A stretch of 64,000 nucleotides of DNA, taken from the NCBI RefSeq assembly GCF_002854065.1, contig NZ_CP024147.1. One strand, written 5' to 3'. The translations under genes and the position numbers were made by a program. The notes beneath the pieces are model-generated. The model was not told the DNA's origin and did no database searches. It worked only from the letters and a program-made list of their open reading frames with translations. Shown here piece after piece: positions 34,182 to 34,471 of the stretch (positions within the stretch are counted from its first letter, which is position 1; each line of letters opens with the position of its first letter). This stretch comes from Escherichia coli. Lineage in GTDB: Bacteria > Pseudomonadota > Gammaproteobacteria > Enterobacterales > Enterobacteriaceae.

Positions 34182-34315
34182 GATTGAAACCTGCCCGTTT
34201 AAAGTTATTTTTTCACTTCAACCCACTTTGCTTAACGCTGGCTAAGCAAAGTGTGCGGAGAAGCACCATTCCCTTGCTGAAATGACCAGATTGTTGACAA
34301 AGTGCGCGTTATTCA

Positions 34316-34414
34316 TGCCGGATGCGGCGTTAACGCCTTGTCCGACCTACAAAATCGTGCAAATTCAATACATTGTAGGAACCATGTAGGCCTGATAAGC
34401 GAAGCACATCAGGC
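34316..34414. repeat. REP pair (BIME-like) inside the accessory segment
   Basis: TGCCGGATGCGGCG...GTCCGACCTAC and GTAGGCCTGATAAGCG...CATCAGGC inverted REP units. Confidence 0.7.
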
Positions 34415-34471
34415 AGTTTTGCCTTTGTCATCAATCTGACCATTCCCTTGCGGGAATGGTGCTGGTAAAGA

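Follow-up and report, generated by a model that had tools for sequence, protein, structure and literature searches.

A BIME-1 element bordered by two copies of the sinI terminator hairpin in an Escherichia coli adhesin locus

Introduction

The way in which REP and BIME elements spread has lacked an answer ever since they were discovered, and papers from 2021 and 2026 still call it unexplained. The spacer between sinI and a ratA-like adhesin gene of Escherichia coli raises this question in a precise form: how did a pair of inverted REPs come to lie between two copies of one and the same short hairpin? The spacer belongs to a 64,000-nucleotide stretch of contig NZ_CP024147.1, hereafter called the window. 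A preliminary description of this sequence had pointed out the REP pair and a repeated 13-mer, and it had proposed either a small MITE-like insertion that duplicated its target or a regulatory palindrome disrupted by REPs. We describe here a duplication as long as the hairpin itself, which points to insertion at the hairpin feet.

Results

Organisation of the sinI–ratA spacer

The genes of the locus are all carried by the minus strand, in the order sinH (35493-37673), sinI and ratA-like ORF. Over 33700-35000, the sequence shows 100% identity to E. coli strain 100416. The spacer considered here (34182-34471, 290 bp) is bounded by the start of the ratA-like ORF and by the stop codon of sinI. Its features are collected in Table 1.

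Table 1. Features of the sinI–ratA region, in window coordinates.
Feature	Position	Strand	Description
ratA-like adhesin ORF	30507-34181	-	RefSeq 'adhesion domain-containing protein'; BIg21 and InvE_AD repeats in orthologues
Second conserved stem-loop, outside the insertion	34224-34253	-	arms CACTTTGCTTA (34224-34234) and TAAGCAAAGTG (34243-34253)
Remnant of the old terminator: three outer stem bases (AGC) and degraded T-run	34255-34264	-	sense GCTTCTCC; E4208 GTTTTTCC
Decayed second hairpin copy	34265-34286	.	ACCATTCCC-ttgc-TGAAATGAC
BIME-1 (RIB/RIP) element, inserted unit	34287-34438	+	152 bp; starts CAGATTG, ends CAATCTG; absent from three empty alleles
Left terminal arm	34287-34302	+	CAGATTGTTGACAAAG; first bases conserved in 19 copies; inverted repeat of 34423-34438
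Y-type REP (palindromic unit)	34317-34350	+	ends CCTAC; more than 40 REP matches per E. coli genome; partial Rfam naRNA4 match
L linker with IHF-type site	34351-34385	+	AAAATCGTGCAAATTCAATACATTG; conserved across copies; Rfam ES036/CssrF match
Predicted IHF-type site	34363-34375	+	ATTCAATACATTG; 1 of 9 specified positions off the consensus WATCAANNNNTTR; motif found once in the window
Inverted Z-type REP	34386-34414	-	plus strand GTAGGCCTGATAAGCGAAGCACATCAGGC; inverted pair with the Y REP; profile and Rfam matches
Right terminal arm	34423-34438	-	plus strand CTTTGTCATCAATCTG, reverse complement of CAGATTGATGACAAAG; inverted arm of the element
Intact sinI terminator hairpin copy	34439-34460	.	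ACCATTCCC-ttgc-GGGAATGGT; orthologous single hairpins in empty alleles
sinI coding sequence	34472-35437	-	ORF; RefSeq 'SinI family autotransporter-associated protein' (identical genomes); homologues found

The ratA-like ORF encodes 1,224 amino acids in the window, versus 2,158 in strain E4208, 2,416 in HVZ29 and about 2,690 in EC958. The shorter ORF may reflect a different number of repeat domains or a truncation. In strain 2018-05-2CC, a deletion took the 5' part of the ratA-like gene and ends inside the second stem-loop of Table 1, at the equivalent of about 34243.

This second stem-loop sits between the sinI terminator and the ratA start. The hairpin announced upstream of ratA in the preliminary description does exist, but it is found eight to nine bases away from the proposed 34232-34262, with an 11-bp stem and an 8-nt loop. 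On the sense strand, the stem reaches 13 bp if one G·U pair is counted. The folding energy is -18.7 kcal/mol and the structure is not followed by a T-run. E4208, HVZ29 and EC958 retain it although both arms of the stem have changed. A 5'-UTR element of ratA and a processing site are two possible roles for it.

The inserted unit is a BIME-1 element

A BLAST search of 5,426 complete E. coli genomes identified 34287-34438 as a repeated unit. The mobile segment had first been thought to measure about 170 bp. It does have copies elsewhere, one of them, about 90% identical, between dppA and dppB in most E. coli genomes and another between rlmC and artJ, but the unit delimited by these copies is 152 bp long. 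A profile derived from 12 copies matched the window copy from end to end. Queried with 38 nt that cover the left arm and the first part of the Y REP, the genomes gave a median of 26 matching places each, partial matches included. The number of such places varies, from 8-14 in several genomes of about 5.1 Mb to at least 40 in K-12-type genomes. Some lineages are reported to have lost the REP transposase gene, which may be related to this variation.

The REP pair is present as described. It is made of a Y REP and of an inverted Z REP, the feet of which are CCTAC (34346-34350) and GTAGG (34386-34390). Outside the REPs, 15 of 16 positions agree between the terminal arm CAGATTGTTGACAAAG and CTTTGTCATCAATCTG read as its reverse complement, and these ends are conserved in 19 copies. 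The end sequence, written as CAGATTGnTGACAAAG / CAGATTGCTGACAAAG, has a constant 5'-CAG…CTG-3' and is part of the 16-bp inverted arms. The near-inverse repeats seen earlier at the segment ends correspond to GATTGTTGACAAAG (34289-34302) and CTTTGTCATCAATC (34423-34436), with 13 of 14 positions complementary.

Published BIME-1 elements contain a Y REP, an L linker with an IHF site and a Z1 REP. They measure about 140 bp, occur as a single unit per locus and are reported as present or absent among isolates; IHF binding to BIME-1 is also documented in this literature. The window element contains one Y and one Z1 REP in inverted orientation, separated by a conserved L linker with a predicted IHF consensus site. 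It is a single unit of 152 bp, located outside genes at a 3' end, 33 bp past the sinI stop. Its family comprises many dispersed copies with presence/absence polymorphism, filled and empty alleles being found at four loci. Part order, size class, 3'-end position outside genes, multiplicity of copies and strain polymorphism are those of BIME-1. The window element is an ordinary member of this family and is not in itself different from known ones.

The linker region also matches the Rfam model RF02751 (ES036, CssrF) at 34351-34393, with 48 bits for a gathering score of 37.6. Since this model consists only of the 43-nt linker of the repeat, the 'sRNA' family is in effect the linker of this repeat. 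The match shows that the repeat has been catalogued as a transcript and does not imply a function of its own for the window copy.

Two other REP clusters, distributed over the two strands, are present in the window, at 10885-10999 (profile positions 6-131) and 57600-57721 (profile positions 28-143). They match only the inner part of the profile, without full terminal arms. In the first 50 kb of K-12, REP pairs were found and no copy with terminal arms, and the NC_000913.3 annotation that was used contains no REP or RIP features. A scan of viral contigs for the linker motif returned six matches, none of which is a BIME-1. A permissive search for other elements with the same arms gave only noise.

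Two copies of one hairpin abut the element

Directly outside the unit, the 22-nt sequences ACCATTCCCTTGCTGAAATGAC on the left and ACCATTCCCTTGCGGGAATGGT on the right are identical at 18 positions. Both abut the 152-bp unit, as defined by its copies elsewhere. The right copy, first after the sinI stop on the sense strand, is the perfect hairpin of the preliminary description, confirmed in the sequence. It is followed by the element in place of a T-run. The 13-mer ACCATTCCCTTGC does occur twice, at 34439-34451 as proposed and at 34265-34277, three bases away from the proposed 34268-34280. The idea that the 13-mer is a duplicated target holds as far as the duplication is concerned, but what was duplicated is the 22-bp hairpin in full. 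A repeat search extends the similarity to 20-22 nt, and the decayed second arm of the hairpin is found in the nine bases that follow the left 13-mer. The four differences between the two copies are all located in the arm of the decayed copy that touches the element (4 of 4 changes within 9 of 22 positions; chance of about 0.017 according to our own calculation).

The two window copies share the GCAA sense loop, where the empty alleles described below have GTAA, GAAG or GTAT. They are therefore copies of each other. We also considered that the nine bases TGAAATGAC had been carried in from a donor locus. This was rejected because other copies of the element start exactly at CAG and because 5 of the nine bases agree with the hairpin arm. 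In O145:H28 genomes, the decayed left copy contains an extra ATTC (ACCATTCATTCCC), in all O145 genomes listed, consistent with this copy being free to decay.

At three loci, empty alleles reveal which copy changed. All eight stem substitutions counted there are in the arm that touches the element (four at sinI–ratA, two at alx–ygjR and two at satP–mog). Selection against a longer element palindrome, or joint damage at insertion, are possible reasons for this bias.

Empty alleles carry a single terminator hairpin

Three island alleles without the REP segment were found, in Escherichia sp. E4208 and in E. coli HVZ29 and EC958. Their spacers measure 109-122 bp and contain no element and one hairpin, at the very position of the insertion, which supports the proposal of a MITE-like REP insertion with target duplication. 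The sense sequences are TAA…AGCACCATTCCCgtaaGGGAATGGTGTTTTTCC in E4208, CACCATTCCCgaagGGGAATGGTGTTTTCC in HVZ29 and ACAGCATTCCCgtatGGGAATGCTGTTTTCC in EC958. In E4208, the hairpin CACCATTCCCgtaaGGGAATGGTG is followed by TTTTT and has an energy of -21.1 kcal/mol; EC958 is similar, and the energies of the empty-allele terminators range from -21 to -24 kcal/mol. A G+C-rich stem-loop followed by a T-run after the stop codon, as expected for an intrinsic terminator, is observed in the empty alleles and in neither window copy. The stem is maintained through paired changes (CACC/GGTG versus CAGC/GCTG in EC958), so that the structure is conserved and not the sequence. The earlier view of a regulatory palindrome disrupted by REPs was right in its effect, the near copy having lost its T-run and the far copy having a weakened stem, but the palindrome is the intrinsic terminator of sinI.

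The empty site reconstructed from the window aligns without a break over the junction in about 1,500 genomes. The window-type allele is carried by 48 of the 5,426 complete E. coli genomes and is filled in all 48. It is also filled in one metagenome contig, the only one returned by a scan of metagenome contigs for the intact hairpin; an empty allele sharing this hairpin exactly did not come out of the scan. Among the empty alleles of the locus, that of E4208 is the nearest, with a SinI protein 84% identical. From these sequence comparisons, we conclude that the 290-bp spacer is an ancestral spacer of about 116 bp with a single gain of 174 bp, made of the 152-bp element and of the 22-bp hairpin duplicate.

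Consequences for sinI–ratA transcription

No terminator-like site was found in a scan of 34100-34600. In the sinI transcript, CAGAUUG takes the place of a U-run after the near hairpin (-15.4 kcal/mol). The sense-strand energy of the far hairpin is -4.5 kcal/mol; G·U pairing is still possible with three of its four changes, and CUUCUCC is what is left of its U-run. With a T-run missing from the near copy, and a weak stem and degraded T-run in the far copy, transcripts of sinH–sinI probably enter the REP pair. The 293-nt spacer RNA is predicted to form one long hairpin (-115.8 kcal/mol, z = -8). Published effects of REP pairs include protection of upstream mRNA, partial attenuation of read-through and IHF binding. 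The pair described here could act likewise on the upstream mRNA, on read-through into ratA and as a target of IHF. As the terminator between sinI and the ratA-like gene is dismantled, expression of ratA together with sinH–sinI may change. The loss of the terminator concerns one allele lineage of this virulence-associated island.

The hairpin footprint recurs at other BIME-1 loci

Nineteen independent loci were assembled from ten E. albertii copies and from E. coli loci found with arm queries. They were picked for their well-conserved arms and are not a random sample. Genome contigs were scanned with the pattern AGATTGNTGACAAAG (14 specified bases), which gave mostly chance matches and at least ten useful E. 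albertii copies. At each locus, the 32 nt to the left of the element were compared with the 36 nt to its right, and the null distribution was obtained by comparing left flanks with the right flanks of other loci. Scores at or above the 99th percentile of this cross-locus null, which never exceeded 9.5, were reached by 11 of the 19 loci.

At nine of these 11 loci, each end of the element is in direct contact with a copy of a complete, locus-specific hairpin of 17-26 bp, the two copies forming a direct repeat. Besides sinI–ratA (22 bp), these are alx–ygjR (26 bp), glmS–pstS (22 bp), rlmC–artJ (17-18 bp), mgtA–ridA (about 23 bp), sbp–pfkA (19 bp), satP–mog (20 bp), ymdF–rutG (22 bp) and pitA–uspB, where the repeats measure 21 bp and 26 bp and the loops differ by a 5-nt indel. 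Two of these loci provide a clean pair of filled and empty alleles, with one hairpin in the empty allele. At alx–ygjR, K-12 has the single hairpin caacaaaaAAGGAATACGtctgCGTATTCCTTTcggg and E. albertii has hairpin, element and hairpin, the rest being about 97% identical; the sampled E. coli sequences are all 177 bp shorter than that of E. albertii. At satP–mog, ATCCCCCCgctcGGGGGGATTTTTTT is present once in K-12 and on either side of the element in ATCC 25922. At glmS–pstS, the E. coli alleles have a single hairpin, which is one or the other of the two hairpin versions of the filled E. albertii allele.

The other ten of the 19 loci are devoid of a two-sided hairpin. The hairpin is found on one side only at uvrB–yvcK, nfsB–ybdG, asnB–nagD and ybiU–ybiT, and no flanking hairpin is seen at fepA–entD or at two further loci (L082 and L086). 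Insertions common to E. coli and E. albertii are among these cases (uvrB–yvcK, fepA–entD). In strain PK13, the footprint at rlmC–artJ turned from two-sided to one-sided because a 24-bp deletion, not found in K-12, removed the right hairpin copy. Decay accounts for at least one locus without a two-sided hairpin, and insertion without duplication may also occur.

In the nfsB–ybdG copy of E. albertii (L083, reverse strand, about 458), a perfect 11-nt repeat, ATTCTCCTGAT, was considered as a target duplication and rejected. It lies at -32/+22. Despite its high score, it is 22-32 nt outside both element ends, and outside the hairpin on the left. A separate observation concerns E. coli GN06156, where a different G+C-rich element of about 108 bp (L154, 324-432) replaces the BIME-1 that K-12 and E. 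albertii carry between yvcK and uvrB. This element, presumably boxC-like (…CCCTCACCCTCTCCCCGGAGGG…), has related ends, GAGATTGCTGAC…TTAATCTG, and lies against the hairpin that flanks the BIME-1, at its opposite foot. A wider family with different interiors may be defined by the arms.

The distribution of filled and empty alleles could also be read in the other direction, the filled state being ancestral and the empty alleles having arisen by precise deletion between the hairpin copies. Direct repeats of 17-26 bp can mediate such a loss, presence or absence of BIME-1 among isolates is on record, and the glmS–pstS alleles of E. coli, which hold either the left or the right hairpin version, are what it would leave. 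At sinI–ratA, however, the filled state is confined to the single allele lineage of the 48 genomes and the metagenome contig. Three mutually divergent lineages are empty, and one insertion is more parsimonious than three losses. Moreover, the duplication of the hairpin would still need an earlier insertion. We regard an ancestral filled state as unlikely.

Direct or inverted copy

A hairpin and its own reverse complement differ mainly in the loop. The identities of the two hairpin copies in direct and in inverted reading were counted by hand on the printed sequences. The direct reading is better at sinI–ratA (18 versus 14 of 22), alx–ygjR (24 versus 20 of 26), mgtA–ridA (19 versus about 10 of 23) and sbp–pfkA (15 versus 11 of 19). 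The two readings tie at rlmC–artJ. The glmS–pstS loops (GAAA versus TTAC) look as if flipped, and the inverted reading is slightly better there (20 versus 18 of 22). As the direct reading fits better at four loci, direct target duplication is the best general description.

These counts bear on a scenario in which the second hairpin would be an inverted copy made by template switching, the palindrome of the element being extended over the neighbouring hairpin with no target-site duplication. It would agree with the flipped loops of glmS–pstS, with the folding of the whole spacer as one long hairpin and with the length of the inverted repeat, which reaches 41 nt per side with 78% complementarity (34262-34302 versus 34423-34463). 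However, left and right copies have identical loops in the window (TTGC/TTGC) and at alx–ygjR (TCTG/TCTG), and the hand counts favour the direct reading at four loci. Template switching appears improbable, somewhat more so than an ancestral filled state.

The palindrome ACCATTCCC could instead be a protein-binding regulatory site for ratA, of which two copies would be kept as operators. Its location upstream of ratA and the conservation of the stem in four alleles would be in line with such a role. Yet it is pairing that is conserved and not sequence, as seen with the compensated EC958 stem, and the T-run that follows the hairpin on the sinI-sense strand of the empty alleles is the signature of an intrinsic terminator. 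In addition, the second copy is decaying (four substitutions, and the extra ATTC in O145), and eight other loci display the same arrangement with unrelated hairpins. A pair of operators is very hard to reconcile with these data. Finally, chance repetition of 13 bases beside an ordinary REP pair is refuted: AT/GC-mixed spacers often contain short repeats, and 2 of 2000 shuffles of this one reached an exact direct repeat of at least 13 nt, but the repeat abuts both ends of an independently defined unit, equals the orthologous single hairpin of the empty alleles and belongs to a geometry found at eight other loci, against a cross-locus null that stays at or below 9.5.

Discussion

A model for insertion at hairpin feet

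The best explanation as a whole, to which we give a probability of about 0.85, is that a BIME-1 element inserted at the sinI terminator hairpin through cuts at its feet, with duplication of the 22-bp hairpin and splitting of the terminator. The anatomy of the spacer, the empty alleles and the recurrence at other loci are direct observations. From the footprints, we infer that the target would be cut on opposite strands at both hairpin feet, or up to 3 bp inside them. The hairpin was probably extruded during cutting and would have set the cut positions. Cuts near both feet would produce a staggered break, and hence a duplication, as long as the hairpin; the element would be joined in and the gaps filled, as in target-site duplication. 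Unlike in usual target-site duplication, the length of the duplicate would be set by the structure of the target. The stagger coincides exactly with the hairpin at alx–ygjR and glmS–pstS. At rlmC–artJ it falls about 1 bp within the stem, and at sinI 1-3 bp within.

The enzyme usually suspected in REP mobility, TnpA_REP (RAYT), is a candidate. A classical cut-and-paste enzyme would be just as compatible with the terminal arms and the IHF site. A central bend introduced by IHF would bring together the two ends of the 152-bp element. Constant ends, inverted arms and such a bend are reminiscent of a small cut-and-paste element.

We propose more tentatively, as an idea that has the odds somewhat against it, that BIME-1 elements in general integrate at terminator-type hairpins through structure-guided cuts at the feet, the duplication being as long as the hairpin. 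If true, a concrete and testable rule for the site and manner of REP/BIME insertion would be available for the first time. The position of BIMEs at 3' ends, and their precise loss by recombination between hairpin copies, would then be explained as well. No mention of a hairpin-length duplication flanking BIME-1 was found in the literature searched, Bachellier (1997) and Boccard & Prentki (1993) being outside that search. Should older papers already describe the footprint, the present case would be one more BIME-1 insertion. The hairpin-length target duplication is a robust and possibly undescribed clue to the way in which these elements insert.

Comparison with known mobile systems

Like classical MITEs, the window element is a small non-coding segment whose inverted ends are flanked on either side by directly repeated target sequence. 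Terminal inverted repeats are indeed present. It differs from MITEs by a duplication that is long, variable (17-26 bp) and equal in length to the target hairpin. The values observed, 17, 19, 20, 22, 22, 22, 23 and 26 bp, with 21 versus 26 bp at pitA–uspB, do not correspond to a fixed length.

Variable duplications are also found with insertion sequences. IS186 and IS1634, of the IS4 family, make duplications of variable length, and IS186 prefers palindromic targets with a G-run and a C-run. As in the window insertion, the length of the duplication varies and tracks a palindromic target. The ends of these insertion sequences, however, are unlike CAGATTGnTGACAAAG, and the IS186 end seen in K-12 is unrelated. 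No insertion sequence was seen beside any copy of the element.

Another parallel is offered by Cas1–Cas2, which attacks the palindromic CRISPR repeat at its two borders, thereby duplicating it, and needs IHF in E. coli. The window insertion is alike in outline: the target is palindromic, attack at its borders would take place on opposite strands, and gap filling would duplicate the whole palindrome. It is unlike in the size of the insert (152 bp versus about 33 bp) and in having no CRISPR context. Cas1 serves as an analogy only.

A further comparison is with the REPIN–RAYT system, in which REP doublets are thought to be mobilised by TnpA_REP, a domesticated single-strand transposase of the IS200/IS605 type. 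The RAYT gene (tnpA_REP) is reported between yafL and fhiA, outside the window. As in REPINs, the window element has two inverted REP hairpins with GTAG/CTAC feet on either side of a spacer, and it belongs to a family with vertical persistence and many diverged copies. It differs by the 16-bp inverted arms outside the REPs and by the target duplication, which measures 22 bp here and 17-26 bp at the eight other loci. Transposition of the IS200/IS605 type involves neither target duplication nor terminal inverted repeats. Faced with the duplicated hairpins, either the model of insertion without duplication or the assignment of the enzyme to BIME-1 needs revision.
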